Below, in pieces: positions 2,060 to 31,561 of a stretch of DNA of 32,000 bases. A model generated the notes under the pieces. The model saw nothing but the letters and a program-made list of their open reading frames with translations. It ran no database searches and was not told where the DNA came from. Every line of letters starts with the position of its first letter. The stretch's first letter is position 1. Source of the stretch: Promethearchaeum syntrophicum (GTDB lineage Archaea > Asgardarchaeota > Lokiarchaeia > Sigyniarchaeales > Promethearchaeaceae); assembly GCF_008000775.2 (NCBI RefSeq), contig NZ_CP042905.2, forward strand, positions 3,000,001 through 3,032,000, written 5' to 3'. A program made the position numbers and the translations under genes.

Positions 2060-2130
2060 AATTTACAAAAGAAATAAAAAAAATCTTTTCACCACATAAA
2101 AAAATAGGAGATCGTTCGGGGACTTGCAAA

Positions 2131-2907
2131 ATGAGCAGAAAATTTAAAATTGGAATTCAAGAGTTCGAATCATGTGGAAAAGATATAATTAATCTTTTAA
2201 ACTTAAGACCTGAGATGGAAAAATTACTTAAGAACGTGGAAATTACTCTCTTAGGATACACATCTAACATTGACTGGTCAAGATACCCAAGTATAAAAAT
2301 TCGGGAAGAAATATCAGAAACGGATAAATTTGATGTTATTTTATGCATTGGAAGTATTTTACCCGGACAAGAAAAAAGAATCCATGATTTACGGAATAAA
2401 ACAATACAAATTGTAGCAGTTGGCGCTTGCTCTCTATATGGTGTTCGGCCATCAATCTCCACAAGTGGTTTCACGAATGAGGAGTGGGATGAAGTGGAAA
2501 AAGTTACCAAAAACAAGGTTCCAGAATATCAAGATCTTTTTCGTAAATCTGTGTGTGAAATTGTGAAAACAGAATATAGAATACCCGGATGTCCAATAGA
2601 TGAATATTCATTTATGAAATTTATATATGACCTCATTGAGGGTAAATTACCTCGCCTTGAAGTAGCCCCGGTGTGTTGGGAATGTAAATTGAAAGGTAAC
2701 GAATGTATTTTTATGACTAAAGGAATAGTCTGTTTAGGTCCAATAACTCAATCAGGTTGTGGCGCTCGTTGTCCAACACTCGAAAATAAGCCATGTAGCG
2801 GTTGTGGGGGTTTACTCATCGATGCCAATTTAAAGGAATGGTATCAGATGGTCCTTAAATATGGAAAAACAATTGAGGAAGTCAACAAATTCTTTGTTAG
2901 CAGGTAA
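2131..2907 (+). CDS. [NiFe]-hydrogenase small-subunit-like Fe-S protein (sulfhydrogenase delta HydD / FlxC-like); no large-subunit partner in the window
   Basis: It is colinear with the NADH-ubiquinone oxidoreductase 20-kDa / HydD fold: VAVGACSLYG, IPGCP, PVCWECKLKGNECI, CLGPITQSGCGARCP, CSGCGG. The N-terminal CxxC of the proximal cluster is reduced to ESCGKD. Confidence 0.7.
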   Translation: MSRKFKIGIQEFESCGKDIINLLNLRPEMEKLLKNVEITLLGYTSNIDWSRYPSIKIREEISETDKFDVILCIGSILPGQEKRIHDLRNKTIQIVAVGACSLYGVRPSISTSGFTNEEWDEVEKVTKNKVPEYQDLFRKSVCEIVKTEYRIPGCPIDEYSFMKFIYDLIEGKLPRLEVAPVCWECKLKGNECIFMTKGIVCLGPITQSGCGARCPTLENKPCSGCGGLLIDANLKEWYQMVLKYGKTIEEVNKFFVSR

Positions 2908-2915
2908 GATATATC

Positions 2916-5390: not shown

Positions 5391-5399
5391 ATAAAATAT

Positions 5400-6476
5400 G
5401 TGAGAGTGAAAATCATTACTAAAAAAAGGAATTATAGGGAAGGAAATATTTCAGACATCATAAAATTTATTGATGAAATTTTAAAAACATATACTGTTAT
5501 TGCACCAACAAAAATTGAAGGAAAACAAACAAAATTCACTCAAATTTCTTCAAGCACTGAAATCCTTCTTAATCCGAATCACCAAACAAGTTTCTCTTTT
5601 AAAGAGTGGTTACTTCCACGAAATCAAATTTTATTGCAGTATAATTTCGATAAAAATGACATTACCATAGATGATTCCGTTGATTTTTCTTCTAAAAAAC
5701 GGATATTATTCGGACCTCATCCATGTGACCTCCATTCAATTCAAATTCTTGATAAAATCTTTTTAGAAGAAAAAGATTTGGATGTTCATTATAAAAAATT
5801 ACGTGAAAATACATTAATTATTGGATTAGGATGTAAAGAACCATTTAAAAATTGTTTTTGTGCAAGTGTAAATACACTTGAGCCACCAGATGGAACTTAT
5901 GATTTATTCCTTTATCTAAAAGGGAAAAAATTCTATGCATTTGAAGGTTCTTCTGAAGGGGCAGATTTAATAAAAAAATTGAAATCTAAAGTGTCAATTG
6001 ATGGAGAGAAACAGATATCCTTAATAAATAAACACATTGCTTCTTCACAAACATTTAAATTCCCAAAAGATGAAGATATTGGAGCAAAAATCAAAGAAAC
6101 CTACGGATCTGAGTTTTGGGATGATCTTGGTAAAAAATGTTTTGGATGCGCAGGTTGCACAATCGTTTGCCCAACATGTTATTGCTTCTTTGTGGATGAC
6201 AAAGTAGAAAATGATGGAAAGAAAAAAATGTATAAACGTATTAGAGATTGGGATTCTTGTACTCTAAATAATTGGGCTTTAGCAGCAGGAGGTCATAATT
6301 TTCAAAATAATCGAGGAATTCGCTTAAATAGACGATTTATGCACAAATTCTCACAATTAAAAACGAAATTAGGAAGGATTGCTTGTGTTGGATGCGGTCG
6401 TTGTATTGATATATGTCCTACAGGTGCAAGTAACCCAGTAAATGTCATAAAAGATCTAATTAAATTCAAAAAATAA
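5400..6476 (+). CDS. 4Fe-4S cluster protein, sulfhydrogenase beta (HydB) / FlxB / AsrA-like
   Basis: Motifs CFGCAGCTIVCPTCYCF and CVGCGRCIDICP, plus the upstream GCKEPFKNCFCAS, are typical of HydB/AsrA-type subunits. The start is a GTG; there is a 9-bp gap from hdrA. Confidence 0.7.
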   Translation: MRVKIITKKRNYREGNISDIIKFIDEILKTYTVIAPTKIEGKQTKFTQISSSTEILLNPNHQTSFSFKEWLLPRNQILLQYNFDKNDITIDDSVDFSSKKRILFGPHPCDLHSIQILDKIFLEEKDLDVHYKKLRENTLIIGLGCKEPFKNCFCASVNTLEPPDGTYDLFLYLKGKKFYAFEGSSEGADLIKKLKSKVSIDGEKQISLINKHIASSQTFKFPKDEDIGAKIKETYGSEFWDDLGKKCFGCAGCTIVCPTCYCFFVDDKVENDGKKKMYKRIRDWDSCTLNNWALAAGGHNFQNNRGIRLNRRFMHKFSQLKTKLGRIACVGCGRCIDICPTGASNPVNVIKDLIKFKK

Positions 6477-6506
6477 TAATCTTGTTAAAGAACTGGATGT
6501 AAAGAT

Positions 6507-7388
6507 ATGGATAATAAAAAAATAGACACTAAAACGAACAGTTGGAAACCGATGACTGCCCGTCTTTCTAAAATTGTGCCTCAATCTTCTTTTGAAAAAT
6601 TGTATTCAATAGAACTTGAAAATCCGAATGAAAAAAAGCAGTTCACTTGGATGCCGGGTCAATTTCTTGAGCTTTCAGTTTTTGGAATTGGGGAAGCTCC
6701 ATTTTCAATTTCGAGTTCCCCTACAAGTGGTACTTTGGAAATATGTGTTCGGGCAACTGGATCAATTACTAATGCACTTGAAAAAATGAAAGAAGGAGAA
6801 AAAGTAGGGATACGTGGACCATTTGGGAACTCTTTTGTTGTTCCTGAAGCAAAAGGAAAGAATTTAGTTTTAGTTGCAGGAGGGATTGGTCTTGTTCCTT
6901 TACGTTCAATGATAAATTATGTATTGGATAAGCGGGAAGAATTCAAAGAAGTATTTATTTTTTACGGAACACGAGATCCAACCCAAATTCTGTTCCAAGA
7001 TGAAATTGAACAATGGCAAAAACGCAATGATATTCAATTTATGTTAACGGTCGATCGAGGATCTCCTGATGCAGGATTTGGTGAACCAGATCCTAGTGGA
7101 AAATATCAAGGAAATGTAGGGGTGGTAACAACTCTTTTTTCAAAAATAGATATTCCGTCAAAAAATACAATGGGATTTATTGTTGGACCCCCAGTGATGT
7201 TTAAATTTGTTGTTAAGGAATTTGAAAAACTCCAAATTAAACCATCAAATATTATTGTTTCACTTGAACGAGTTATGCATTGTGGAATCGGCAAATGCGC
7301 ACATTGTCAAATTGGGGATATTTTAGTATGTAGAGATGGTCCCATATTCACTTATGAACAAGTTCAATCAATGCCAGATGCAATTTAG
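6507..7388 (+). CDS. FAD/NAD(P)-binding 2Fe-2S oxidoreductase, sulfhydrogenase gamma (HydG) / FlxA / AsrB / PyrK-like
   Basis: Ferredoxin-reductase-type barrel (PGQFLELSV...APFSISS), nucleotide-binding LVLVAGGIGLVPLRS, and a C-terminal 2Fe-2S motif CGIGKCAHCQIGDILVCRDGP. Confidence 0.8.
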   Translation: MDNKKIDTKTNSWKPMTARLSKIVPQSSFEKLYSIELENPNEKKQFTWMPGQFLELSVFGIGEAPFSISSSPTSGTLEICVRATGSITNALEKMKEGEKVGIRGPFGNSFVVPEAKGKNLVLVAGGIGLVPLRSMINYVLDKREEFKEVFIFYGTRDPTQILFQDEIEQWQKRNDIQFMLTVDRGSPDAGFGEPDPSGKYQGNVGVVTTLFSKIDIPSKNTMGFIVGPPVMFKFVVKEFEKLQIKPSNIIVSLERVMHCGIGKCAHCQIGDILVCRDGPIFTYEQVQSMPDAI

Positions 7389-7397
7389 TGATAACTT

Positions 7398-9236
7398 ATG
7401 AAAAAAAACAATGAACAAATCAATGAAAATATTATGAAAATTAAAGATCAACCAGAATCTATCCAACAATTAATTGATTTAGGAAAAATCTACCTTCAAA
7501 AACATGATATATTAGAAGCACGCTATTATTTCTTAAATGCTATTAATCAATATCCAGATAAAGTTGATGGATACCTATCTATGGGAATGTTTGCATATAA
7601 GGATAATAATTTGGATGTTGCGCATGATTATTTTAACCAAGCGATTGATATTGATGAAGAAAATATTAATGCTTGGCTTGGTCTAGCAAAAATAAATTTA
7701 AAACTTACAGCTCTAACAAGTACAAAACGCTATATTAAACGAGCATTAAAACTTGCCCCCAAAAATCCAGAAGTTCTTTTAATTTGGGGAGTATATAATT
7801 TTTTAATTCATAAATATGGATTATCTGAAAAAATTTTACTCCAAGTCGTATCCTCATCAAAAAATGAAACATTCCTGAATGCAACTTTTTATTTAGGTTT
7901 GTTGTATGCAAAACAGAGAGAATTTATGAAGGCAGCTAGTAAATTCCGCCATTTATCTGAAATTGAAACTTATAAAGATAGAAATCTATTTAATGATGCG
8001 GTTGTTCAAAATAATTTAGGTGTTATTGAATTTCAATTAGGAAATTATGATAAAGCAGAAGAGATTTTTAAGAATTTGCTTGTTCGGAAAACAACGTTTG
8101 AATCCACAGTATTAATGAATCTTGCTCAAATGTATTGGATCCAAGATAAAATCGATGACGCAGTTAAATCTATTAATCAAGCACATAACATTGATGTAAA
8201 AATTTGGCCATGGATGCAGGAATTAAATGAATACTTACAAACTGGGGAAGAAGGATTAGCGAATAAAATTAAGTCTTTACTAAAACATAACCCTGATGGA
8301 TTAAACTTGTCAATGTATTTAGGGTGTGTGATCCCCAACCGTTATCCGTTTATTGAAGCCGCTTCTCGGCATGTACTTGATTTCTTTGAAATTGGAATTC
8401 AAGAGCTTGAAGGAGCCTCTTGTTGTCCCGCTCCTGGTGTTTTTAGATCCTTTGATTTTCTTACGTGGTACGTAGTTGGAGCAAGAAATATTACATTGAG
8501 TGAAAAATTAGGCGTGGATATGTGCACAATGTGTAACGGTTGTTATGGAACGTTAAATGATGTCAATTGGGAACTTAAAGAAAATAAATCCATACGCGAT
8601 GAAGTAAATCAAAAATTGAAAGATATTGATCGTGAATTTAAAGGTTCTATTAATGTTCGTCATATAATTGATGTGTTTTATAATAGTGTCGGTGTAAAAG
8701 AAATTAAAAAAAAAATTGTAAATCCAATGAAATTAAATGTTGCAGTCCATTATGGATGTCATCTCCTAAAACCTTCTTTTAATAAACCTTGGAAAGAATC
8801 GAGTGAAGCTCCAACATTCTTTGATGAATTGGTGGAAATCACTGGAGCAAAATCCATTCCTTATAAAGATAAAATGATGTGTTGCGGAGCAGGTGGAGCA
8901 GTTCGTGGAGGAATGAAGGAAGTATCATTGGATTTTACGTATGAAAAACTTCTAAATATGCGGAAAGCGGGAGTAGATATTATAGTAGTTTGCTGTCCTT
9001 TCTGTCATTTACAGTTTGATTTAGGCCAAATTGAAATAAATAGTATTTATAAGGATAAAATAGCAGAACCGTTTAAAATTCCGGTTATCTATTACACTCA
9101 ACTCTTGGGATTGGCATTAGGTATGGATCCTTTTAAATTAGGTCTATTAAAAACTCCGAAAGGAAAAGGTGTTCCTCCATTCATTCCTGTTGAGTCAATT
9201 TTTTCTCGTTATATTGAACAGATTGATTGGATTTGA
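7398..9236 (+). CDS. hdrB: TPR-repeat domain fused to heterodisulfide reductase subunit B (two CCG domains)
   Basis: Residues about 20-300 form multiple TPR-like units (LGKIYLQKHDILEARYYFLNAINQYPD, NAWLGLAKINL, NNLGVIEFQLGNYDKAEEIF, MNLAQMYWIQDKIDDAV). Residues about 300-612 hold two CCG domains (LGCVIP...ASCCPAPG...CTMCNGC and YGCHLL...MMCCGAGG...VVCCPFC). Confidence 0.85.
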   Translation: MKKNNEQINENIMKIKDQPESIQQLIDLGKIYLQKHDILEARYYFLNAINQYPDKVDGYLSMGMFAYKDNNLDVAHDYFNQAIDIDEENINAWLGLAKINLKLTALTSTKRYIKRALKLAPKNPEVLLIWGVYNFLIHKYGLSEKILLQVVSSSKNETFLNATFYLGLLYAKQREFMKAASKFRHLSEIETYKDRNLFNDAVVQNNLGVIEFQLGNYDKAEEIFKNLLVRKTTFESTVLMNLAQMYWIQDKIDDAVKSINQAHNIDVKIWPWMQELNEYLQTGEEGLANKIKSLLKHNPDGLNLSMYLGCVIPNRYPFIEAASRHVLDFFEIGIQELEGASCCPAPGVFRSFDFLTWYVVGARNITLSEKLGVDMCTMCNGCYGTLNDVNWELKENKSIRDEVNQKLKDIDREFKGSINVRHIIDVFYNSVGVKEIKKKIVNPMKLNVAVHYGCHLLKPSFNKPWKESSEAPTFFDELVEITGAKSIPYKDKMMCCGAGGAVRGGMKEVSLDFTYEKLLNMRKAGVDIIVVCCPFCHLQFDLGQIEINSIYKDKIAEPFKIPVIYYTQLLGLALGMDPFKLGLLKTPKGKGVPPFIPVESIFSRYIEQIDWI

Positions 9237-9303: not shown

Positions 9304-11364
9304 CTATAACGTAGTTAATCCGGAGGTATTTCCATCGTATTCTTCAGGGGTGTCTGCTCCTGATTGTGGATATGCAGCAAGTGCGTAATCAAATGCATTT
9401 TCCATAAATGTTGAAGGATTGCTGCCATAATGATTAATTAAAGTATATTCTAAGAAGAAATATGTCCACATTCCATTTTGTTGGGCGGAATAATCATAAC
9501 CATAACCACTGTCTGAACAAGTTGTAGTGCAATAAACAGCATTACTGTTAGGCATGGACATTAATTCAGGTCCAAATCCACCAGAATAACAATGATCAAT
9601 AAATACAAAAACACTTTCTGCAACGGCGTTATCTAAAATTCCAGCTACTTCAGTGTCATATAAATCACCATCTTCTCCACTTTCTCCAGAAGCACAATCC
9701 CATGCACATATATATGAAGATCCTGATCCATCACCTGAACCATGACCAGAAGTAATATATGCTACATCACCTTCTTGACTTGCTAGCCATTGCAAATAGT
9801 ATTTAATATTATATTCTGTAGCATATCCATCGTATTTTGGATAATTTGTGGTATGTCCATCACCTAAAACAATTACATTTTCACTTGAATAACCGCAAAC
9901 TTGTGTGAGATAATTGAACCAATCAGTTGCATCTTCATCACAATATGAAAGATCACTTATAGCTTTATAATCAGAAATTCCAACTATTAACGCGAATTTT
10001 CCCCCAGAACTTGGGATGTTATCAACGGTGACTGATATAGAATCTTCTTCATAGTTTCCTGCTTCATCATAAGCGCGAACAGTTATTGAATGAGAGCCTT
10101 CAGAAGCTGTTGTAGTGTCCCATGACCAAGAATAAGGAGCAGTTAAATCGTCAGTCCATGCACCAGCATCAATCTTATACTGTGTTTTTACTACCCCTAC
10201 ATTATCTGTTGCGGTTGCTGAAATAGAGATGGTATCTTGGACTGTTGCACCATTAGTTGGAGCCGTAATTGATACAACGGGTTTTTCATAGTCTCCACCA
10301 CTAATTGTGTAATAACCAACTGTTGCAGTATAGGCTGTGCTTGAAGCAGATGAAGTATACATTCTTACAGCAATATAATATGTTCCAGCTGTTGTAATGG
10401 TATATGAGCATGTTTCAGGATTAGACGTCGTATATCCTCTTGCTAAATAACTTGTATAATCTGGAGATTGGCAGATATAACAATCAATGTCATTAGAATT
10501 CCCCCATGAAACCGAAACATCCATGAGTCCAGGCTCTGCATTAACTTCGTAATAATCAACTTCATAACCGGCGACAGCACCTACAAAATCACGCGATACA
10601 TGAACGGGGTTACTTGGATTATTATTTACGTTTACAGAAATTGAATCATCAGCATAATTTCCTGCCGCATCATAAGCTCGAGCGTTAATTGTATGAGTCC
10701 CATCTGAAACAGCTGTACTATCCCAACTGAATCCATATGGACTAGTTGTATCATCAGTCCAGGCACCCCCATCAATGTTGCATTGAACTTTGGTTACCCC
10801 CACATTGTCATTCGCGTCAACAGCAATTGAAATGGTTCCACTTACTGTATCTAAATTATTTGGAGATGTAATTGAAACTGTTGGATCTACAGTATCTGAA
10901 CCACCATCATCGATATAATATTTTACAGAAAGTGTATAAGCGGTTGACGAAGCCCAACGACTATACATTCGAACGGCAATGTAATAAGTCCCCTCACTCT
11001 GAATATTATAGGAGCACGTTTCAGGATTATTCGTAGTATACCCCCTTGCTAAATAATTAGTATAATCGGGTGTTGGACAAATATAGCAATCAATATCATA
11101 ACTATTCCCCCAAGATACGGAAACTTCCATCAAACCTGGGACTACATTATCAATTTGAAAATAGTCGACTTCATATCTTGCTACAGCATCATTAAATACG
11201 TCAGTTACTTGAACTGCTCGAATGCCCATTTCACTATTAAGATTTTTACGCACAATTTCGTCTGAATCTACTGCTAAACTCTGATTTTGTGCCGTAAATA
11301 CAATAGTGGTGCTTATGAACATTATCAAAATAAATAATTTAAATCGTTTACTAAAGGATTTCAT
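9304..11364 (-). CDS. secreted clan-CD (caspase/legumain-like) cysteine peptidase with two N-terminal PPC + Ig-like modules
   Basis: Signal peptide MKSFSKRFKLFILIMFISTTIVFTAQ from the ATG at 11364 (the ORF track extends to 11436). Two repeats each combine a pre-peptidase-C-terminal-like domain (YEVDY...DIDCYIC...GTYYIAVRMY) and a bacterial-Ig-like domain (VSITSP...DNVGV...AYDAAGN). The C-terminal caspase-like domain reads FALIVGISDY...ITSGHGSG...FVFIDHCYSGGF, giving a His/Cys dyad. Confidence 0.75.
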   Translation of the reverse strand: MKSFSKRFKLFILIMFISTTIVFTAQNQSLAVDSDEIVRKNLNSEMGIRAVQVTDVFNDAVARYEVDYFQIDNVVPGLMEVSVSWGNSYDIDCYICPTPDYTNYLARGYTTNNPETCSYNIQSEGTYYIAVRMYSRWASSTAYTLSVKYYIDDGGSDTVDPTVSITSPNNLDTVSGTISIAVDANDNVGVTKVQCNIDGGAWTDDTTSPYGFSWDSTAVSDGTHTINARAYDAAGNYADDSISVNVNNNPSNPVHVSRDFVGAVAGYEVDYYEVNAEPGLMDVSVSWGNSNDIDCYICQSPDYTSYLARGYTTSNPETCSYTITTAGTYYIAVRMYTSSASSTAYTATVGYYTISGGDYEKPVVSITAPTNGATVQDTISISATATDNVGVVKTQYKIDAGAWTDDLTAPYSWSWDTTTASEGSHSITVRAYDEAGNYEEDSISVTVDNIPSSGGKFALIVGISDYKAISDLSYCDEDATDWFNYLTQVCGYSSENVIVLGDGHTTNYPKYDGYATEYNIKYYLQWLASQEGDVAYITSGHGSGDGSGSSYICAWDCASGESGEDGDLYDTEVAGILDNAVAESVFVFIDHCYSGGFGPELMSMPNSNAVYCTTTCSDSGYGYDYSAQQNGMWTYFFLEYTLINHYGSNPSTFMENAFDYALAAYPQSGADTPEEYDGNTSGLTTL
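10024..11175 (-). repeat. intragenic tandem duplication, two units with a period of about 609 nt (203 aa) encoding PPC + Ig-like modules
   Basis: Residues about 88-270 and 291-471 of the protease align end to end, for example SVSWGNSYDIDCYICPTPDYTNYLARGYTTNNPETCSY against SVSWGNSNDIDCYICQSPDYTSYLARGYTTSNPETCSY. Confidence 0.85.
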
Positions 11365-11614
11365 AATATCATCTTCTAACAATTGGAAAAAACCCAATCC
11401 GAGATAATAAAATAAGATTTTGAAAGGTTTTTCCAATTGTTAAATATTTTAATAAATAGATTTATAAATTTATGGATCTTTTTTATATTAATATATAAAT
11501 ATTAAAAAAAAAATCCCACAAAATATAAAAAAAAAGGATTTTATTTTTTTCATTTAAAAGGAAAAAAATAATTTTTAAGTAGAATACCGACAAAATTAGA
11601 TTAGGGAAAAATTT

Positions 11615-20477: not shown

Positions 20478-22334
20478 ATGGCGTTTGATTCAGAAAATGG
20501 CCTTCCTTTTCTTGCTACTGCATTGTTGACTAGCGTTGGGTTGTTGATGCTTATAGTTTCGCTTTTAAAAGGAAACAAAAGAATTAAACGTTGGATAATA
20601 CCTGTAATCATTCACAATATTTCTCTCTATGTGCAATTCGTAGATAATTCATTTTTTGAAGATAAGTATACCGTTATTCACCTTATCATATCTGGGATAG
20701 GTTTAATATCCTTAATCATAATAGCGATTATAGAATATAACGAGGAATTTCCTCTAAATCACGCGATTGAACGAAAAAGAATTCTGCAATATATTTTTTA
20801 TTCACTTACTTCAATTCTCGTATATATTCTTCTTTTACACCTAATCTTTAATACATCAGAAAAACTCTATACATTTTTTTATTATATCCTTGCTATTGGA
20901 ATTTTATTCTCAATTTTTTTGCTTTTAAGAATTTATAAAAAAAAAAAAAGAACACCAACTCATATGAGCATAGTTATTATCCTTGTGATAATAGAAGTAG
21001 ATCTAATTTTATATATAATTACAGATTTTACGACGACCGATTTATATCCATTTCTTCGTGTTTTTGATGCCGGAATAGGAATTGGGATGTTATTTTTTGC
21101 TTTTATCGCATCGGTCGAAAATCAATTATTAGAGATCTATGAAAAAGAAAGGTTGCAAAATAAATTATTAAGGCGAACTCAAGATAAAATCATTTCCCAA
21201 ACTCAATTAAGTTCTATTCAGATTATTTCAGGAGGGTTTGCTCATGATTTTAATAATATTCTCACTTCAATCATTGGAAATATAAGTTTAATTGAAGATT
21301 ACCCAATATTTCAAGGAGAAGGAAAGGAATTCATCATTGATCTTAAATCAGCATCATCTCAAGCAAAAAATATGGTAAATCAGCTTTTGGTATTTTCTAA
21401 GGGAGAGGAATTTTTAAATAAGGAAATCATCACCTTTAAAGAAATATTGAAAATTACCACTGATTTTACATTACGAGGGAGAAAATCAAAACCTATATAT
21501 GATATTGATAAAAATTTATGGGCTATATATGGAGATCCAATCCGAATAAGTCAAATCATTCAGAATTTGGTGATTAATGCTGATCAATCCATGCCAGAAG
21601 GAGGTATAATTGAGCTGAATGCACAAAATGTGGAAATCGAGGATAATAATCAGTTCAATTTACAACCTGGAAAATATCTTCTATTTCAGATAAAAGATTC
21701 TGGTGTCGGAATTCCTTCCAATATTCAAGAAAAAATCTTTACTCCATTTTTTACTACCAAACCAGAAGGACAGGGATTTGGATTAAGCATATGTAAGAAA
21801 ATTGTAGAAGATCATCAAGGTTATATAAATTTCAAGACAACAGTTGACAAAGGTTCGATTTTTTATTTTTATACGCCTGCAAAAATGAATAGTACAATAT
21901 TAAATGTGAAACATGAACAACTAAAAGATAAGTTTTCAGGTTTTGGGTTAATTTTAGACGATAATATCTTGGTTTTACGTGTTATTGAAAGCATGCTTAA
22001 GAATTTGGGAATCAAAGCAATTACATCTTCTGAAAGTACAACATTTCTTTCAACATATGAAGATCTGCTTAAGAAAAAGATAAACGTTGATATTCTAATT
22101 GTAGATCTAACTTTACCAGGTGATATCGGAGGAAAGCAATTAATTAATGATATTCGAAGATTCAATCCAGAAGCTTACGTGGTTGTTTCAAGCGGATATT
22201 CTAATGATTTTGTATTACAAAATTATCAAGATTACGGATTTAATGATTTACTTAGGAAACCTTATGATAAGAATGAATTAATAAAGGTATTAGAGAAAGC
22301 TTTCAAAAATAAAAACCCTAACCCAAATATTTAA
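20478..22334 (+). CDS. membrane-bound hybrid sensor histidine kinase with a C-terminal receiver domain
   Basis: Multi-TM N-terminus; H-box GGFAHDFNNILTSIIG; N/G boxes QNLVINADQSMPEGG, DSGVGIP, FFTTKPEGQGFGLSICKKIV. The REC domain reads LILDDN...ILIVDLTLPG...LRKPYD. Confidence 0.85.
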   Translation: MAFDSENGLPFLATALLTSVGLLMLIVSLLKGNKRIKRWIIPVIIHNISLYVQFVDNSFFEDKYTVIHLIISGIGLISLIIIAIIEYNEEFPLNHAIERKRILQYIFYSLTSILVYILLLHLIFNTSEKLYTFFYYILAIGILFSIFLLLRIYKKKKRTPTHMSIVIILVIIEVDLILYIITDFTTTDLYPFLRVFDAGIGIGMLFFAFIASVENQLLEIYEKERLQNKLLRRTQDKIISQTQLSSIQIISGGFAHDFNNILTSIIGNISLIEDYPIFQGEGKEFIIDLKSASSQAKNMVNQLLVFSKGEEFLNKEIITFKEILKITTDFTLRGRKSKPIYDIDKNLWAIYGDPIRISQIIQNLVINADQSMPEGGIIELNAQNVEIEDNNQFNLQPGKYLLFQIKDSGVGIPSNIQEKIFTPFFTTKPEGQGFGLSICKKIVEDHQGYINFKTTVDKGSIFYFYTPAKMNSTILNVKHEQLKDKFSGFGLILDDNILVLRVIESMLKNLGIKAITSSESTTFLSTYEDLLKKKINVDILIVDLTLPGDIGGKQLINDIRRFNPEAYVVVSSGYSNDFVLQNYQDYGFNDLLRKPYDKNELIKVLEKAFKNKNPNPNI

Positions 22335-24110: not shown

Positions 24111-25874
24111 TTAGTTACATTGATTAGGATTTAGTGCCATTGATAAAGTACTGGCTAAATCTATAATGGTATAAGGTTTATGCAAAAAGAAAACCATGAT
24201 TTCATAATCATTTCTTTCTTTAATTTCAGGTATCTCATATCCACTAGAAAGTATAATTTTAACATTAGGATTAATTTTTTGTAAAATAGTTGTGCATTCT
24301 TGACCTCCTATTCCACCAGGAATAGTGCAATCTAAAATTAATAGATCATAGGGTTTACCAATTTTATAAGATTTTTCGTATTTATCACAAGCTTCTGAAC
24401 CAGTTTTCGACATATCAACGGTAAAACTAATTTTTTTTAGCATTTGCTCCAGAGTTCTTAAAATTGCAACATCGTCGTCCATTATCAGAATTCTTTTTCC
24501 TGAAAAATTTGGTATTTTTTTATCAGGTACGATCTCGTTTTTCGAAGTTCCTGGAATTGCTGGTAATATAACCATAAATTTTGTTCCTTGACCGACCTGT
24601 GATTTTACTTCGATATACCCCAAATGATTTAAGACAATCATCTTGGATATATACAAACCTAACCCAGTCCCCTCTTTTTTGGTTGTGAAAAATGCTTCAA
24701 ATACGGATTTTAACTTATTTTCAGATATCCCAACTCCCGTATCTTGAAAAATAATTTTTAAATAATCTCCTGGTTGTAAATTAAATTCATTACCTCTTGA
24801 ACATGTACTATTTTCCAGATAGATATCTAAATGACCCCCTTCTTGCATTGCTTGAATTGCATTAATCACTAGATTTTGGATAACTTGAGAAATTTGACTT
24901 TTATCCCCTTTAATCCCATATAAATTCTCTTGAATGTGAATTTTTGGTTTAATGTTACTCCCTCGTGAAGAAAATCTAACCACGTCTTTTATTAATTCTT
25001 CGAAGTTCTGAATATTTTCAATTTTAGGCTGGTGACTCTTTGAAAAATTTTGTAGTTGAGTAGTTAAGAGCTTTGCACGGATGGAGGCTTTTTCGGCTTC
25101 TTCAATTAATAATTTTGTATCTGCGGGAATTTCAAAATCATTAATGAAATCAGTATTAAGTAAACTTAAAACTCCCAATATGCTAGTAAGAAGATTATTG
25201 AAGTCATGAGCAATTCCTCCAGCCAATGTTTGTAAAGAAATGAGTTTTTCTTGGTCGATTAATTTCTTTTGTGTTTGTTTTAAAATTTCAAATTGTTCTT
25301 GTTGTTTTTTTATAAGTGCATTGATGATATAATGCAAGATCATTGAAATTATAAAGGCTACTAAAATATTCGGTATTAAATCTGTTAAAGTATTTGCATA
25401 ATATACACCTGAATCAGGATCAATCGGTTGCCCCCAAGTAAATTTTTCGGTGATGATCCCAATGGTAATTCCAATTATATCGATTAAAAATAGGAGGATT
25501 GAGAAAAGGGGGGTTTTTGTAAGGATTCCTGATATTATTAGAATCAATGAAAGAAATGTGAACATATATGCGGAAAATATCTCCAATCCTCTAAAAATAA
25601 ACATAAAATTCAAACCTAAAATTAAAATATATGAACTGAGATTATATTTACCCAATTTTAATAAAATGAACGAAATTAATGCTATGAGAAAAACAATTAG
25701 GGAAAAAAAACTAAATGTTTCTTCGTTAAGATAAATAATAATCGTGATAAGAAAGGTTGCAACTATTAGAATAGTTAGAAAACTTTTAATTATTAATTCT
25801 CTTACCCATTCTATAGTAATTTTCTCTTCCTCATTAAATTTCCATGTTTTTAGTTTAGGGAATAATCTCTTCAT
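24111..25874 (-). CDS. membrane-bound hybrid sensor histidine kinase with a C-terminal receiver domain (paralog of 20478-22334)
   Basis: Multi-TM N-terminus; GGIAHDFNNLLTSILG; QNLVINAIQAMQEGG; DTGVGIS; FFTTKKEGTGLGLYISKMIV. The REC domain reads ILIMDDD...LLILDCTIPGG...LHKPYT. Confidence 0.85.
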   Translation of the reverse strand: MKRLFPKLKTWKFNEEEKITIEWVRELIIKSFLTILIVATFLITIIIYLNEETFSFFSLIVFLIALISFILLKLGKYNLSSYILILGLNFMFIFRGLEIFSAYMFTFLSLILIISGILTKTPLFSILLFLIDIIGITIGIITEKFTWGQPIDPDSGVYYANTLTDLIPNILVAFIISMILHYIINALIKKQQEQFEILKQTQKKLIDQEKLISLQTLAGGIAHDFNNLLTSILGVLSLLNTDFINDFEIPADTKLLIEEAEKASIRAKLLTTQLQNFSKSHQPKIENIQNFEELIKDVVRFSSRGSNIKPKIHIQENLYGIKGDKSQISQVIQNLVINAIQAMQEGGHLDIYLENSTCSRGNEFNLQPGDYLKIIFQDTGVGISENKLKSVFEAFFTTKKEGTGLGLYISKMIVLNHLGYIEVKSQVGQGTKFMVILPAIPGTSKNEIVPDKKIPNFSGKRILIMDDDVAILRTLEQMLKKISFTVDMSKTGSEACDKYEKSYKIGKPYDLLILDCTIPGGIGGQECTTILQKINPNVKIILSSGYEIPEIKERNDYEIMVFFLHKPYTIIDLASTLSMALNPNQCN

Positions 25875-25977: not shown

Positions 25978-26523
25978 TCACTTTTCGTTTTTTTTCCCCA
26001 ATTGCATAGAAAAATGATTCCATCTTAAGTAGATATACGAAACTATGAGCAGATGAACAACCCAACATCCCAAAATTCCAAAATAGAAGACAATTTTACC
26101 AAGAATAAGACCGAGAAAAAAGCTAAAAATTATAAAAATCAATCCCAGAGCATTGTTTTTACTCAGGATAAGAATATGGATATGGTAAATCCCAAAAATT
26201 CCAGCAGAAATAAGAATTGTAAAAAATGGAGTAAAATAACTTAATAAAAAATTAAAAATAATCCCGCGGAACAGAAGTTCTTCAAAAAGGAGGGTTATGG
26301 GAAATAAAAAATATAACGAGTATTTATGGTTTCCTTTAAGCGCGGTAATGAAAGATACAGAGGAGATATCGATTCTACCTTTTGAAATAAAAATGTGAGT
26401 AAAAACTTCAGCAATGATAAGAAGAACTAAAATTCCCCCCACTAAAATCGAACTTTCGATATAGAAATCCAAACCATCACTAACTAGTGGATAATTCTCC
26501 AATCCAACCCAAAAAGGTCGCAA
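25978..26523 (-). CDS. CPBP family intramembrane glutamic endopeptidase (CAAX protease / Abi family)
   Basis: Polytopic membrane protein with the EExxxR motif (FEELLFRGIIF) and the FxxxH motif (FGIYHIH). The start is a TTG. Confidence 0.75.
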   Translation of the reverse strand: MRPFWVGLENYPLVSDGLDFYIESSILVGGILVLLIIAEVFTHIFISKGRIDISSVSFITALKGNHKYSLYFLFPITLLFEELLFRGIIFNFLLSYFTPFFTILISAGIFGIYHIHILILSKNNALGLIFIIFSFFLGLILGKIVFYFGILGCWVVHLLIVSYIYLRWNHFSMQLGKKNEK

Positions 26524-26672: not shown

Positions 26673-27431
26673 TTAAATTTCTCGAATTTTTATTTTCTTT
26701 TTTAATGACTCAGAAAATGAATAATTCAGTAGTTTTTGATTTCTTAAAATAAATTTACTCCCAATTCCTTTAAATCCTTCTATAATTCCAGTTATATTCT
26801 TAGGTTTTCCATTTTTTGAATAATTTACTTTAGCTTCCGAAATAGCATGCAGTGCAAAGAAAGGATTTCCTAAAACATCCAAAAATCGTTGAGCTTTTTT
26901 ATCCCCAACATCTACTAATCCCTCAAGGAAATATTTTTGATCCTCGGCCGAAATCTCTTCTTTTAAGGATTCTTGATCAATATTGGGAATGATTTCGGGT
27001 AAAAATCCGTTAGATTGCTCTAATTTTGCAATTTCAACTATTATTTTAGCAGTTTCAAGAGCATTTTTTGTAGGGATAACTGGAATATTCATTTTATACG
27101 TTGCATATATTAAAGCCCCATAAATTGAACTTTCCTTAACAAATTTTCTGGAAAAAGTTTTTTCTAGAGATTCAATAATTAATATTGGGAATTGAAAAAC
27201 ATTCTTTAATTTGGATAGCTGTTGGAAAAACCGAGTATCAAAAATTGAAGAAACTAAGTCATCCCCCCTCTTTCGTTCAATTGCACAACGCGAAGATAAA
27301 ATGTAATCACCGAAATCAAGAGTTTCAATACGAATATCACATTCTAAATCATCAAAAGCTCTTCTAATTTCTCCTCGTTCCCGTTCATCAATAATAATTT
27401 TTGGGGGCGAATCAGAGATTTTATTGTTCAT
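26673..27431 (-). CDS. xpf: short-form archaeal XPF: ERCC4 nuclease domain + (HhH)2
   Basis: Complete ERCC4 signature IIIDERERGE...LDFGDYILSSRCAIERKRGDDL, then two HhH motifs (VGDKKAQRFLDVLG; FKGIGSKFILRN). It is colinear with crenarchaeal short XPF as I recall it. Confidence 0.85.
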   Translation of the reverse strand: MNNKISDSPPKIIIDERERGEIRRAFDDLECDIRIETLDFGDYILSSRCAIERKRGDDLVSSIFDTRFFQQLSKLKNVFQFPILIIESLEKTFSRKFVKESSIYGALIYATYKMNIPVIPTKNALETAKIIVEIAKLEQSNGFLPEIIPNIDQESLKEEISAEDQKYFLEGLVDVGDKKAQRFLDVLGNPFFALHAISEAKVNYSKNGKPKNITGIIEGFKGIGSKFILRNQKLLNYSFSESLKKKIKIREI

Positions 27432-27480: not shown

Positions 27481-28167
27481 TTGAAGATGAGTGATAGTCT
27501 AATGTTGAGTAAATTACATGTTATTATAGACGGAGATTCATATGAAAACTTCCAAAAATTGATAGATGAACTAGAAAAACTCGATTTTTATGTAGAACGG
27601 AAAGGTATTGGGAAAAAAATTGTCCAAATCCCCCCTAATGGGGGAGTACTAATCTTAAAATCAAAAGACTTGGAAGGAAAATCTTCAATGTCGAATATCC
27701 AAAAAAAAATGCAGGATTTCTTTAAACTAATACCGAATGGGGTAATTATTTATGAGAATTTCAACCAATTAGGTGGAATAAAGAGAGATCTAATTCAAAA
27801 AATATTGTTTAATCAAATTTTTAACACAGAATCGACATTTAACGGAATTGTCCCAACGAGAAAACCATCAGAAACCGCATTATGCATTAAAAGTATAGCA
27901 AAAAGGGAGCAAATTGAAGATAATCCTCCAATTTTAAGTAGAACAAAAAGAAAGTCAAAGTATCTTTCAGATTATCAAGTTTTTTTTATTGAAGGCTTAC
28001 TTCAATGTGGACCTAAAAAAGCCAAAGCCCTTCTGAAGGTTTTTAATACCCCTCAAGAAATAATTAATACTATTCTTTATGATCCAGATAAAATTTCACG
28101 AATAAAGGGATTTGGTAAAAAATTTATAGAAACTAATCAAAAACTTCTTCAAGGTAATCTAAAATAG
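27481..28167 (+). CDS. ERCC4-like + (HhH)2 paralog lacking the nuclease catalytic motif (ERCC1/EME1-like, degenerate)
   Basis: It is colinear with the adjacent XPF (VIIDGDS, VIIYENF, PTRKPSETALCIKSIAKRE, CGPKKAKALLKVF, IKGFGKKFIETNQKLL). GDY is absent and the ERK position reads LILKSKDLE. The track start is a TTG at 27481; an ATG lies at 27487. Confidence 0.65.
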   Translation: MKMSDSLMLSKLHVIIDGDSYENFQKLIDELEKLDFYVERKGIGKKIVQIPPNGGVLILKSKDLEGKSSMSNIQKKMQDFFKLIPNGVIIYENFNQLGGIKRDLIQKILFNQIFNTESTFNGIVPTRKPSETALCIKSIAKREQIEDNPPILSRTKRKSKYLSDYQVFFIEGLLQCGPKKAKALLKVFNTPQEIINTILYDPDKISRIKGFGKKFIETNQKLLQGNLK

Positions 28168-28202: not shown

Positions 28203-28574
28203 ATGCAAGATTCTTTTGATTCAAATTGTCATTTCAAGGTAGGATGTAAATTTTGGATTAAAGGATCAAATGATTTTACTATGGGTCCAGGCGATGTTAA
28301 GTTAATTAAAAAACTAATAGAATTTAAAAATCTGACAAAAGCAGCCAATGTTTGTAACTATTCCTACAAATATGCTTGGAAAAAGATTAAAAATATTTCA
28401 GAAAAAACCGGTAAAGCAATCGTTAAAAGCCACAGAGGAGGTAAAGGCGGTGGTGGCGAGGTTTCGGTGACTCCATGGGGAATCCATTTGGTATCATTAT
28501 TTGAAAGTGCTGAAATGCAACTAAATAAAGTGATCAGTAAAATTAATGCTGATTTTGTAAAAAAACAATCATAA
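28203..28574 (+). CDS. ModE N-terminal-domain-like winged-HTH protein
   Basis: LTKAANVCNYSYKYAWKKIKNISEKTGKAIVKSHRGGKGGGGEVSVTPWG matches the ModE/LysR-type HTH pattern (SYKxAW...GGxGGGG...T). No molybdate-binding Mop domain is present. Confidence 0.7.
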   Translation: MQDSFDSNCHFKVGCKFWIKGSNDFTMGPGDVKLIKKLIEFKNLTKAANVCNYSYKYAWKKIKNISEKTGKAIVKSHRGGKGGGGEVSVTPWGIHLVSLFESAEMQLNKVISKINADFVKKQS

Positions 28575-28622: not shown

Positions 28623-30296
28623 TTGAATAGTGGCATAACTAAAATTGAAAATACAACACCGGAAGAAGAATTCACAATCATTATTGACATTGGAGAGGGA
28701 AATACAAAAGTCGGGTTTGCTGGAGATGAGAAGCCAATAATGTTTCCGACTGTTGTAGGAAAACCAAAGTATAGACAAACCATGATGACAGGTGTTAACG
28801 CCCAAGAGATTTACGTTGGGGAAGATACAACAAAAATGCGGGGAGTTCTCAAAATTGCTCATCCAATTAAGCGGGGAACAGTAATGGATTGGGATAATTA
28901 TTATGCTATATTAAATCACATATTCTTTGACACCTTGCGAGTAGATGCAAAAAAATGCAATGTCATTTATCTGGTGCCCCCCTTAACAAACCCCGAAACG
29001 TACCAATATTTTGCCAAAGTTTTATTTGAAACTCACCAAGTTAAATCTGTAGCAATAATTGATACTGCAACCACATCAGTATTTTCTATTGGGGAAACAA
29101 CGGGATTATCTATTGAGATTGGGTGTGGATTATGCACTATTTGTCCAGTAATGGATGGAAAAATCTTTGGTCCAAGCGTTCAAAAACTTAATTTAGCGGG
29201 AATGGATGTCGAGGATTATTTAGAAAAGTTGCTAACTCAGTACGGAATCTTTCAAAAGAGGGAGATTATCCAAGATATTAAAGAAAGAACCTTAAAAATT
29301 GCAATGGATCCTAATGCGGCTTCTCAAGATCCTTCTTTCAATGTGAAATATTTACTCCCTGATGGAGAAAAATTGGAGTTAAGTTCTTACTTCATAATTA
29401 TGGCAGGGGAAATTATTTTTAACCCAATTTTAGTGGGAATTAGTGGTAGGAGTATACAAAGTGCAATTATTGATTCTCTTCGTGCGACAGATCCTAATTA
29501 TTGGAGACAATTACTTCAAAAGATTGTATTGTCAGGAGGAACTTCCTACATTAGTGGATTAAAGGACAGGTTGGAAGCTGAAATAAAAAAAAACCTAGTT
29601 GAACTAGGAGATTTACCTCCTATTGTTGATGAGACAACAAATATTCTAGTACCAGAACCAGTAAATGGAAATTCATCTTCCTTAGAAGATTCAACTTCTA
29701 TGGTGCAAATTCTGGGAAAAGAAAGTAAACCAGAAAATTGTTCACGATGTGGCGAATTATTAGAGAAAGGAAGTGATTTTTGTCAATCTTGTGGACAGCA
29801 TGTGGATCAAAAACAAATTGAAATATTAGGTGCAACACATTCATCATATCCTACAATATGTTCAAAATGTTTTCAAAAATTAGATGGGATAATTTCAGTC
29901 TGCCCTTATTGTAATAATAAATTAAAACCTATAATCTCTGAAGATAAATTAGATCGTAAAGAAAAGAAACTTTTAAAGAAAACCTCTGTTTCTGAAAAGG
30001 AATTGAAAGAATTATCATTACAAGTGGAAAGTGAATATGGTGGCTTTGATGAATTAGAAGAAATTAATGAGAAAAAACCTCCACTTATCGGTAAGCTAAA
30101 TATAAAAGTCCCTAAAAAGGATCCAGAAGAAATAGTTCAAATTGTGTTACATGATGATAGATTTTACGCTGCTTTTAAAGGCGCTTCAGTTTTAGGGTCT
30201 TTACCAAGTTTCAAGCCCTTTTTGGTTGATAAAGCCACTTTTGATGCAAATCCAGATGCTTGTAAGGTTGACTTTTATTCTATCATTAATCAATAA
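28623..30296 (+). CDS. actin-family (actin/Arp-like) protein with an internal double zinc-ribbon insertion
   Basis: Actin hallmarks appear in the right order: IIIDIGEGNTKVGFAGDEKPIMFPTVVGKPKY, LAGMDVEDYL, IIQDIKERTLKIA, YLLPDGEKLEL, VLSGGTSYISGLKDRL, RFYAAFKGASVLGSL. An insertion spans residues about 326-503 and contains CSRCGELLEKGSDFCQSCG and CSKCFQKLDGIISVCPYCN. The start is a TTG. Confidence 0.85.
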   Translation: MNSGITKIENTTPEEEFTIIIDIGEGNTKVGFAGDEKPIMFPTVVGKPKYRQTMMTGVNAQEIYVGEDTTKMRGVLKIAHPIKRGTVMDWDNYYAILNHIFFDTLRVDAKKCNVIYLVPPLTNPETYQYFAKVLFETHQVKSVAIIDTATTSVFSIGETTGLSIEIGCGLCTICPVMDGKIFGPSVQKLNLAGMDVEDYLEKLLTQYGIFQKREIIQDIKERTLKIAMDPNAASQDPSFNVKYLLPDGEKLELSSYFIIMAGEIIFNPILVGISGRSIQSAIIDSLRATDPNYWRQLLQKIVLSGGTSYISGLKDRLEAEIKKNLVELGDLPPIVDETTNILVPEPVNGNSSSLEDSTSMVQILGKESKPENCSRCGELLEKGSDFCQSCGQHVDQKQIEILGATHSSYPTICSKCFQKLDGIISVCPYCNNKLKPIISEDKLDRKEKKLLKKTSVSEKELKELSLQVESEYGGFDELEEINEKKPPLIGKLNIKVPKKDPEEIVQIVLHDDRFYAAFKGASVLGSLPSFKPFLVDKATFDANPDACKVDFYSIINQ

Positions 30297-30412
30297 TTAA
30301 ATTAACACTATTTTCTGTATCAATATTTTTTTAATATTTGTTTAATTATTTTGCTACAGAAAATGAATTCCTTCAATTTATGAAAGGTTATAATAGGAAA
30401 GGTTTTAGAAAA

Positions 30413-31561
30413 ATGAAACAACGACATAATATTTTAGCATTTTTATTCTTATCAGTACTAATAATATCCTCATTCGATTATTCGGTGGCGACATCACGAA
30501 AAGATTTACTTGAAGACTTTTGCATTTCCAATCAAACAGCAACGGGCGGTTTTATGGATTTTAATAATGGAACTGCAGATACAATTTCAGAATTTACATC
30601 TTATGCGAATTTGTTCATTCTTAATGAAATAGATCCAAATTTAGAAAAAATTGATAAATCTAAAGCGGAATTTTGGGGTATTGACAGATTAAATGATTTC
30701 ACATCAACAACGGGCACTGAAAAAAGTATCCCCGATGCTTACTATGCTTTAGGAATTTTAGTTTATCTAAATGCGACAGCTAATGAAAATTCAACACTTA
30801 ATGATGCAATTACAAAGATGAATGGTTTTTATAATGAAACCAGTCATGGGTATAATGGAGAAAATAGCCCCATTTCAACATTAAGTGATACTTATTATGC
30901 AATCGAATTTCTTGAAAGAGCCGAAAGTCTTTCCTATTCTACCAACTCAACTGAAATAGCATCTTTTGTATTATCATGCTGGGATAGTGAAGACAATGCT
31001 TTTGCGGGAAGTCCTGGAGGCTATGCAAATCCGATTGATTCATATTTTGCTATTCAAAGCTTAAAAAGGCTTGATAAATTGGACCTTTTTAATCAAAAAG
31101 AAGAATTAAGCGATTTTATTGATGAATTCTACTGTGATGATCCTGTTTTTGAAGCTCATAATGGAGGATACTCACATACACAGAATTCACCTTCATCTAG
31201 CTCATTAATGATGACATATTATTGCGTTAGTCTCCAAAACACATTAAATTCTTCAAAATTACATAATGAAACAACTCTTAATTGGATTTTATCCCGTCAA
31301 AGCCCTTATGATTTCGGATTCAATGATTATTCGAGTACTTCTAGTATTGAATATTCTTCTGCAAAATTATCATATTTTGCTATTCGATCAATCTTAATCT
31401 TTGAAGAAGATGCACTTGGAGATAGAAACAGCGATTTAATGAATGAAGAACTTTGGAATTTATCCACAAGTGGATGGATAATTGCTGGCATTGTATTAAT
31501 ATGTATAGGATTAGCTGCACTCGCAGGATATGGTATTTATCGATATAAAAATCGGATTTAA
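30413..31561 (+). CDS. surface-anchored prenyltransferase/terpene-cyclase-like alpha/alpha-toroid repeat protein
   Basis: Signal or anchor sequence MKQRHNILAFLFLSVLIISS (the ORF track begins at 30338). There are 5-6 repeats of a GG(F/Y)...D.YYA(L/I)..L type (GGFMDF, DAYYALGIL, DTYYAIEFL, DSYFAIQSL, MTYYCVSL, LSYFAIRSI). The C-terminal TM is WIIAGIVLICIGLAALAGYGIY with a short basic tail. NxS/T sequons are numerous. Confidence 0.6.
   Translation: MKQRHNILAFLFLSVLIISSFDYSVATSRKDLLEDFCISNQTATGGFMDFNNGTADTISEFTSYANLFILNEIDPNLEKIDKSKAEFWGIDRLNDFTSTTGTEKSIPDAYYALGILVYLNATANENSTLNDAITKMNGFYNETSHGYNGENSPISTLSDTYYAIEFLERAESLSYSTNSTEIASFVLSCWDSEDNAFAGSPGGYANPIDSYFAIQSLKRLDKLDLFNQKEELSDFIDEFYCDDPVFEAHNGGYSHTQNSPSSSSLMMTYYCVSLQNTLNSSKLHNETTLNWILSRQSPYDFGFNDYSSTSSIEYSSAKLSYFAIRSILIFEEDALGDRNSDLMNEELWNLSTSGWIIAGIVLICIGLAALAGYGIYRYKNRI

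Follow-up and report, generated by a model that had tools for sequence, protein, structure and literature searches.

A zinc-ribbon actin-related protein family of Lokiarchaeia with an insertion at a predicted filament-contact loop

Three actin-family genes, and only three, are entered for Promethearchaeum syntrophicum MK-D1, the first Asgard archaeon brought into culture, in the supplementary table of eukaryotic signature proteins (ESP) of Imachi et al. 2020 (PMC7015854). One of them, DSAG12_03244, is the subject of this work; it lies in a 32,000-nt stretch of the MK-D1 chromosome (contig NZ_CP042905.2, positions 3,000,001 to 3,032,000), referred to below as the window, and encodes an actin-related protein (Arp) with zinc ribbons. 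The same ESP table enters it as actin-related plus double zinc ribbon, with 32.7% identity to Lokiarch_36250, and gives expression values, which are reads per kilobase per million mapped reads (RPKM) according to the table header, of 229 for DSAG12_03244, 501 for the lokiactin DSAG12_00956 and 248 for the third homologue, DSAG12_02858 (PMC7015854). The ortholog in L. ossiferum, UYP44711.1, was one of three 'ARPs' included in an actin tree and in reverse transcription quantitative PCR (RT-qPCR), where it was found to be transcribed at a level below that of lokiactin (Rodrigues-Oliveira et al. 2022). In our comparison this ortholog (P0035/P0121 in our sequence set) is 50% identical to the MK-D1 protein and carries one ribbon as opposed to two. 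The gene studied here is the same as the first of these records and orthologous to the second, and it agrees with both in belonging to the eukaryote-like actin family and in being transcribed, which these expression data have shown for the zinc-ribbon Arp gene. Both publications treat the protein as a fusion or simply as an ARP, whereas its anatomy, family distribution, active site, neighbourhood and function are not covered. The viractin papers distinguish five 'asgardactin' clades, two of them Lokiarchaeota-specific, and their modelled MK-D1 representatives exclude QEE17409, the protein encoded by DSAG12_03244. In the literature searched, no discussion of an actin with a zinc ribbon was found in main texts, the supplementary tables of Imachi 2020 holding the only record, and nothing was found on the anatomy, family analysis or function of DSAG12_03244 beyond a domain list. 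A model's account of this DNA made without database searches (the sequence-only reading) had taken the architecture to be undescribed, while allowing that it might prove to be catalogued and characterised; it is already catalogued, in the Imachi 2020 supplementary table (PMC7015854), though uncharacterised. This work adds the site of the insertion, the finding that 85 loci conserve it, the pattern of catalytic residues and a conserved neighbouring gene for a toroid protein.

Compared with lokiactin and eukaryotic actin, the MK-D1 protein retains the four-subdomain fold, the phosphate and adenosine loops, the lengths of the D-loop and plug and the residues PDG243-245 (actin numbering). It differs from them in its low identity (32.7% to Lokiarch_36250, the lokiactin of Lokiarchaeum GC14_75), in the loss of Gln137 and His161, and in an insertion of 105-183 residues across the family in place of the 321-326 loop. 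Some eukaryotic Arps act by insertion or by end-capping, as in the Arp5 insertion in INO80 and in Arp11, which caps the dynactin Arp1 filament at its pointed end. Similar to these Arps, the zinc-ribbon Arp would combine an actin fold with a lineage-specific partner-binding insertion and with the loss of canonical polymer behaviour on one face, whereas the modified face here is predicted to be the barbed and not the pointed one. To our knowledge, no eukaryotic Arp carries a zinc ribbon. A further point of comparison is CdpC, a double zinc-ribbon protein that anchors FtsZ1 to the membrane in Haloferax volcanii (bioRxiv 10.64898/2026.07.16.738847). CdpC and the zinc-ribbon Arp share archaeal CPxCG-type ribbons and an adaptor role, which has been seen for CdpC and is proposed for the Arp; unlike the Arp, whose ribbons are embedded in a cytoskeletal protein, CdpC is a stand-alone adaptor for a tubulin homologue, and the two are likened by type and not by homology. 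By this analogy, CdpC can serve as a precedent for ribbons tethering a cytoskeletal polymer to the membrane.

The coordinates of all features are collected in Table 1, in which positions are those of the window and residues follow MK-D1 protein numbering, as in the text, unless actin numbering is stated. The translation is 100% identical to QEE17409.1 / WP_147664301.1 from the closed 4.32-Mb genome of P. syntrophicum MK-D1, for which the NCBI label is 'zinc ribbon domain-containing protein' and nothing more. Its N-terminus, MNSG(I/V)T, is common to the homologues and the MK-D1 protein, and an AT-rich TATA-like sequence, ATTATAAAAT, is located ~20-25 nt 5' of the TTG start; a scan for bacterial-type promoters and terminators gave counts equal to those of shuffled sequences and was uninformative. 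All motifs quoted in the sequence-only reading (DIGEGNTKVGFAGDEKP, FPTVVGKPKY, LAGMDVEDYL, IIQDIKERTLKIA, YLLPDGEKLEL, VLSGGTSYISGLKDRL, RFYAAFKGASVLGSL and EIGCGL) are present in the 557-residue translation, and its assignment of the protein to an Asgard-type, eukaryote-like actin fold was upheld by profile and structure searches.

Table 1 Features of the zinc-ribbon Arp gene and its neighbourhood in the window
Feature	Position	Strand	Basis or remark
Zinc-ribbon actin-related protein, complete gene, DSAG12_03244 / QEE17409.1	28623..30296	+	557 amino acids (aa), TTG start, uninterrupted open reading frame (ORF)
Actin-fold core, N-terminal part, residues 15-328: subdomains 1, 2, 4 and most of 3	28665..29606	+	Pfam, PDB alignments; predicted local distance difference test (pLDDT) mostly >90
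Phosphate-1 loop D22-I-G-E-G-N-T-K29 (actin D11-K18)	28686..28709	+	Family alignment
Thr148, position of actin catalytic Gln137	29064..29066	+	Family alignment
Phosphate-2 loop E165-I-G-C-G-L-C-T172 (actin D154-H161)	29115..29138	+	Family alignment
Adenosine motif, residues 301-316, VLSGGTSYISGLKDRL	29523..29570	+	G305, G306 = actin G301, G302
Insertion, residues about 329-502, replacing actin loop 321-326 in subdomain 3	29607..30128	+	Alignment to rabbit actin numbering
Zinc ribbon 1, C373-x2-C376 ... C387-x2-C390	29739..29792	+	Part of Pfam DZR match
Zinc ribbon 2, C413-x2-C416 ... C427-x2-C430	29859..29912	+	pLDDT 88-92
Lys/Glu-rich helical segment, then acidic-aromatic motif, residues 445-482, RKEKKLLKK ... 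ESEYGGFDELEEI	29955..30068	+	AlphaFold2 (AF2)
Actin-fold core, C-terminal part, residues 503-557	30129..30293	+	PDB alignments; pLDDT 81-95
Prenyltransferase-beta-like alpha/alpha-toroid protein, downstream neighbour	30338..31561	+	Pfam Prenyltrans 58 bits; NCBI start M15, 393 aa
ModE-type winged-helix regulator, 123 aa, upstream neighbour	28203..28574	+	TIGR00637 57.6 bits, cut-off 98.5
XPF-like paralog, 228 aa	27481..28167	+	HhH_5 only in Pfam; weak Hef/XPF matches; no ERCC4 domain match
ERCC4/XPF nuclease, 252 aa, ERK motif	26673..27431	-	Divergent pair with 27481..28167
Rce1-like CAAX-protease-family (CPBP) membrane protein	25978..26523	-	Block conserved in L001, L002, L006-L012

Pfam Actin (PF00022) matches residues 15-324 with 227.3 bits against a cut-off of 27, and all 80 sequences of our alignment A1 match the same family. 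In a phmmer search of the PDB the best match was HC1 actin (9wc4, 2.4e-57), followed by dozens of eukaryotic actins (about 1e-54 to 1e-52), and eukaryotic actins are 29-35% identical to the MK-D1 protein. The alignments fall into two parts, with residues 18-323 aligned to actin 32-346 (the actin end lying at about 318-346) and residues 503-543 aligned to the C-terminal actin block (actin 322-360 and 351-389 in the PDB matches). The prokaryotic actin-like families score low, with 23.7 bits for MreB and 15.2 bits for ALP_N in Pfam and, in NCBIfam, 46.9 bits for MamK (cut-off 400) and 14.7 bits for crenactin (cut-off 630); the salactin, MreB and other NCBIfam models are all far under their cut-offs. 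By these profile scores, and in line with the sequence-only reading, the zinc-ribbon Arp is nearer to actin than to MreB, ParM/ALP, MamK or crenactin. An AF2 model computed from an 80-sequence alignment has a mean pLDDT of 82.5 and a predicted template modelling (TM) score of 0.68, with the core mostly >90, and the top 50 Foldseek matches in the PDB are all conventional actins (target-normalised TM about 0.9, E about 1e-34). In this model the four-subdomain actin fold is complete, and the extra residues are a true insertion that leaves the fold unbroken.

The insertion, which the sequence-only reading had placed at about residues 326-503, is real with slightly different borders, roughly 324/329-502 (Table 1). 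It comprises about 175-180 residues and is internal in the actin fold, with no terminal fusion; across the family its length is 105-183 residues with a median of 141, the MK-D1 protein having the longest. Every member carries it between the actin segments 'ITALAP' and 'IKII', and an entry motif, LLPQLGxIPKP, is conserved and widespread in the family. The two expected CxxC...CxxC pairs are both present, and Pfam DZR (PF12773) matches residues 373-431 with 33.1 bits, above its gathering score of 27.3; DZR matches (E <= 1e-3) were obtained for 64/72 family members of A1, and weak Pfam matches to TFIIB, NOB1 and YacG-type ribbons appear in some members. Ribbon 1 is the better conserved element, with C373, C376, G377, C387 and C390 each at least 90% conserved in A1. 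The zinc knuckles are mostly CPxCG, with a spacing of 14-16 residues inside each ribbon and of 26-34 between the ribbons, and the family averages of net charge are -2.6 for ribbon 1, -0.5 for ribbon 2 and -9.6 for the whole protein. The AF2 model gives pLDDT values of 77-92 for the ribbon region (about 370-440) and <50 for the linkers 340-358 and 484-495, which are predicted to be disordered. In Pfam, DZR usually sits at a terminus of proteins that are otherwise unrelated and that are often membrane proteins. The MK-D1 protein resembles these in its four CxxC knuckles, their 14-16-residue spacing and a match above the gathering score, and it differs from them in that its predicted double ribbon is nested inside an ATPase fold.

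A Lys/Glu-rich, probably helical segment had also been proposed downstream of the ribbons, and AF2 indeed predicts helices at 445-454, 458-472 and 475-482 (pLDDT 62-75). The basic helix motif (RKEKKLLKK) occurs in only 28/162 family sequences, which represent the Lokiarchaeales-proximal subclades, and an acidic-aromatic motif, [SDE]E[YF], follows the ribbons in 106/162. When the insertion alone was searched against 1.84 billion representatives, family members were recovered and then only generic multi-zinc-ribbon repeat proteins, which offered no hint of function. The ribbons are therefore of the common DZR type, and the helical part is specific to the family.

The protein search returned about 80 full-length relatives with both Actin and zinc-ribbon Pfam matches and with identities as low as 32%; every one of them belongs to a Promethearchaeota/Lokiarchaeota genome or metagenome. 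Among the GTDB species representatives 164 relatives were detected, the best 80 loci of which were retrieved and combined with 5 found by exact look-up to give 85 loci. The insertion is present at the same site in 85/85 loci, down to 33% identity. Four CxxC motifs follow residue 300 in 81/85 loci and two in the other 4/85; the CxxC pairs of ribbon 1 are kept throughout (85/85), and the lineages that lack ribbon 2 are that of L. ossiferum and a basal one, the P0078-81 clade. A rough neighbour-joining tree with eukaryotic actins as outgroup recovered the family as one clade, in which the single-ribbon forms are basal or secondarily reduced, and one ribbon may be ancestral, with two in most lineages. 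The zinc-ribbon Arp was found in 80/80 Lokiarchaeia-type species genomes retrieved (the best 80 of 164 relatives), and by homology it is, among the loci retrieved, a Lokiarchaeia-specific actin-related protein, or 'Asgard ARP'. One submitter assigned several near-identical members (L022-L025, L030 and others) to Odin-, Thor-, Hermod- or Hodarchaeota, so these labels are unreliable for taxonomic spread. Another locus, L061 (DATKTW010000100.1), carries the Arp, the toroid gene and the helix-turn-helix (HTH) block of the Lokiarchaeial type and was deposited as 'Candidatus Nanopelagicaceae bacterium'; it is probably mis-binned.

The nucleotide site was compared in 86 family sequences using actin numbering. 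Eight positions, D11, G13, K18, G156, G158, E214, G301 and G302, are invariant (86/86), and the S14 position is Ser in 72/86 and Glu in MK-D1. In actin, Gln137 and His161 position the hydrolytic water. Gln never occurs at the Q137 position of the family, where T is found in 63, S in 22 and A in 1 of the 86 sequences (T148 in MK-D1), and the His at position 161 is lost in 83/86 (W 69, T 7, S 4, H 3; T172 in MK-D1). Position D154 is Glu in 85/86. The sequence-only reading had drawn attention to an altered phosphate-2 motif, EIGCGL, and asked whether ATP is still hydrolysed; the motif is real, but it is a variant of the Promethearchaeum subclade, most of the family having ESGDG (D157 is Asp in 64/86, and Cys, as in MK-D1, only in this subclade), and the family-wide changes are those of Q137 to T/S and the loss of H161. 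Since the family retains Asp11, Lys18 and Glu214 together with all the Gly-rich loops for phosphate and adenosine, we infer that the zinc-ribbon Arp still binds ATP, and the replacement of the water-positioning Gln137 and His161 suggests that it would hydrolyse ATP poorly, if at all.

In the F-actin model of Holmes 1990 and in later ones, subdomain 3 reportedly touches the next subunit along the strand through residues 322-325, which meet residues 243-245 in subdomain 4 of that subunit. The second half of this contact, Pro243-Asp244-Gly245, is invariant in the family, the D-loop has the actin length and a conserved GTEKYKxVMVDV, the plug is as long as in actin, and the hydrophobic cleft (139-148 and 346-355) is 43-46% identical to actin. 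In contrast, the insertion takes the place of 322-326, and 283-294 shares only 20% identity with actin, with Tyr at the I289 position and Trp at that of R290, each conserved to at least 90% in the family; the lateral contact 110-115 is 10% identical. Overall, the pointed face is 38% identical and 63% similar to actin, the barbed face 32% and 50%, and the whole protein 33% and 55%. This pattern fits a protein that would present an actin-like pointed face to another actin and whose own barbed face would be remodelled or occupied. Set against conventional actin and lokiactin, the MK-D1 protein has neither Gln137 nor His161, its identity is low and its 322-325 loop is interrupted.

We tentatively favour, at somewhat less than even confidence, a reading in which the zinc-ribbon Arp would be an ATP-binding, hydrolysis-impaired accessory or adaptor Arp that engages lokiactin and is not the main filament former. 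The last point is drawn from the insertion in the 322-325 longitudinal contact, on the barbed face, together with the remodelled 283-294. The Arp may dock by its pointed face onto lokiactin, at the barbed end or as a terminal or side subunit, in which case the net-acidic CPxCG ribbons and the charged segments on either side would serve as an integral adaptor for protein-protein contacts. Candidates for its target are the membrane and the toroid protein encoded downstream, by way of its basic cytoplasmic tails. The toroid gene is the most persistent Arp neighbour, and its product is a possible partner.

Several points weigh against the adaptor reading. The Thr or Ser at position 137 might still allow slow hydrolysis, the asymmetry between pointed and barbed faces is modest and comes from a crude residue list, and the siting of the ribbons on the barbed face follows from alignment, not from model coordinates or predicted aligned error. 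As for the toroid gene, the intergenic gaps of about 100-200 nt that separate it from the Arp gene do not prove co-transcription, and FolD, which follows the toroid gene in 70/75 loci, is nearly as syntenic, so adjacency may mean frozen gene order and not function. The well-conserved hydrophobic cleft would also suit a self-polymerising protein, and a second actin system of this kind, in which the ribbon module would decorate the filament surface as an accessory domain, is the alternative that survives best, though we consider it unlikely. It would account for the conserved D-loop, cleft, PDG243-245 and actin-length plug, for the intact nucleotide-binding loops and for transcription at about half of the lokiactin level. 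It is harder to reconcile with an insertion in the longitudinal contact loop near the filament axis, with a lateral contact (110-115) only 10% identical to actin, and with the family-wide replacement of Q137 and H161, on which the coupling of hydrolysis to polymerisation depends in actin.

A gene for a Prenyltrans (PF00432) protein of 358-407 aa lies on the same strand 3' of the Arp gene in 6/6 loci with gene calls. Among 81 loci with enough downstream sequence, it is directly downstream in 80, of which 79 were identified by tblastn and one (L005) by Pfam; in the remaining locus (L036) it is 2.3 kb away. The AF2 model of the MK-D1 toroid protein (pLDDT 83.6) consists of an alpha/alpha toroid between two hydrophobic helices, 7-31 and 365-388, and its best Foldseek matches are eukaryotic RabGGTase/GGTase-III beta chains (target-normalised TM 0.65-0.72), in agreement with a profile comparison (E 2e-17). 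The Zn ligands of RabGGTase beta, which we take to be D238, C240 and H290, align to T, S and D in the toroid protein in a profile alignment at the repeat level. Both termini are basic, with a conserved extreme C-terminus, WR[KR]R[KR][ILV] or YKYKNRI, and the number of N-x-S/T sequons is 1-12 across loci and 9 in MK-D1. An active cytosolic protein prenyltransferase was considered and appears unlikely, given Zn ligands that are seemingly not conserved, the flanking hydrophobic helices, the basic termini and the 9 sequons, the repeat-level alignment not being conclusive. The protein is probably non-catalytic, and its sequence features suggest an extracytoplasmic toroid with short cytoplasmic tails. 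In the most specific form of the adaptor reading, the zinc-ribbon Arp would cap or anchor the barbed end and couple lokiactin, via the ribbons and the charged insertion, to the basic tails of the toroid protein; we regard this as a long shot.

A ModE-type gene precedes the Arp gene in the same orientation in 69/73 testable loci, and a small CBS-domain gene often lies between the two (49/79). In Lokiarchaeales-proximal genomes the block extends to the genes for the Rce1-like protein, ERCC4/XPF and the XPF-like helix-hairpin-helix (HhH) protein. The 228-aa paralog is 34% identical to the 252-aa XPF over the C-terminal HhH2 half, and the pair, which is kept in Lokiarchaeales-proximal loci, resembles a catalytic/non-catalytic heterodimer of the XPF-ERCC1 type. 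The Rce1-like gene stands three genes from the prenyltransferase-beta-like gene, which may be chance or may point to a module for prenylation-like processing. An Arp2/3-type branching nucleator combines paired Arps with the scaffold subunits ARPC1-5; no ARPC-like gene was found in the window or in the conserved neighbourhood, to which this search was confined.

These upstream genes bear on another possibility, that the protein is a nucleic-acid- or chromatin-associated Arp similar to the nuclear Arp4/5/8, with ribbons that would bind DNA or RNA. Zinc ribbons are often nucleic-acid binders, and the weak TFIIB, NOB1 and YacG-type matches of some members, the conserved ModE-type HTH gene (69/73) and the nearby XPF/ERCC4 pair in Lokiarchaeales would all be in keeping with this role. 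The ribbons are net acidic (protein average -9.6), which argues against nucleic-acid binding; in addition, the XPF adjacency is lost in a large clade at 35% identity, and neither Pfam nor the insertion-only search revealed a DNA-binding domain besides the generic ribbons. Taken together, we judge this role improbable.

A cross-linker between actin and FtsZ or tubulin was also considered, in which a tubulin-family polymer would be the partner of the ribbons, by analogy with Haloferax, where the C-terminal CdpC ribbon binds FtsZ1. CdpC ribbons bind both FtsZ1 and the membrane, distant multi-ribbon relatives of CdpC have been reported in Lokiarchaeia, the CPxCG knuckle type is the same, and FtsZ, actin and ESCRT are expressed together in MK-D1. 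Against this reading, generic ribbons are all that the insertion matches, a specific relationship to CdpC was not seen and none was looked for, and the conserved neighbourhood holds no FtsZ or tubulin gene, leaving the cross-linker a very improbable reading. An artefact in the form of a chimeric assembly, a frameshift, an intein or a recent mobile element has a negligible chance and was ruled out, given the closed genome, the single uninterrupted ORF with actin blocks in-frame on both sides, the ancient and conserved insertion at the same site in 85/85 independent loci, the uniform composition (GC content) and the lack of intein or transposase domains in Pfam.

Other features of the window were recorded in passing. 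A redox cluster (1493..9236, + strand) encodes a 4Fe-4S protein and a subunit resembling the 20-kDa one of NADH-oxidoreductase, together with an 824-aa fusion of an HdrA-like flavoprotein to MvhD/FlpD, further Fe-S and FAD/NAD-binding subunits, and a TPR protein to which CCG (HdrB-like) domains are fused. A 710-aa protein (9304..11436, - strand) has Big_7, PPC and Big_13 Ig-like domains and a caspase (Peptidase_C14) domain and is probably a caspase-like protease exposed at the surface. Two hybrid histidine kinase/response-regulator genes similar to each other (HisKA-HATPase_c-Response_reg) are located at 20478..22334 (+) and 24111..25874 (-), the latter of which breaks the Band_7 - OMPdecase - Rce1-like synteny of related genomes such as L002.

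The zinc-ribbon Arp family is relevant to the regulation of the Asgard actin system beyond lokiactin, profilin and gelsolin. Its anatomy, with ribbons at the contact loop, loss of the Gln/His pair in a pocket that is otherwise kept, and a predicted membrane-anchored neighbour, offers testable hypotheses for a prokaryotic 'Arp'. If the coupling of lokiactin to the toroid protein were true, it would provide an archaeal transmembrane link from the actin cytoskeleton to the cell surface and would bear on how Lokiarchaeia build and hold their protrusions.

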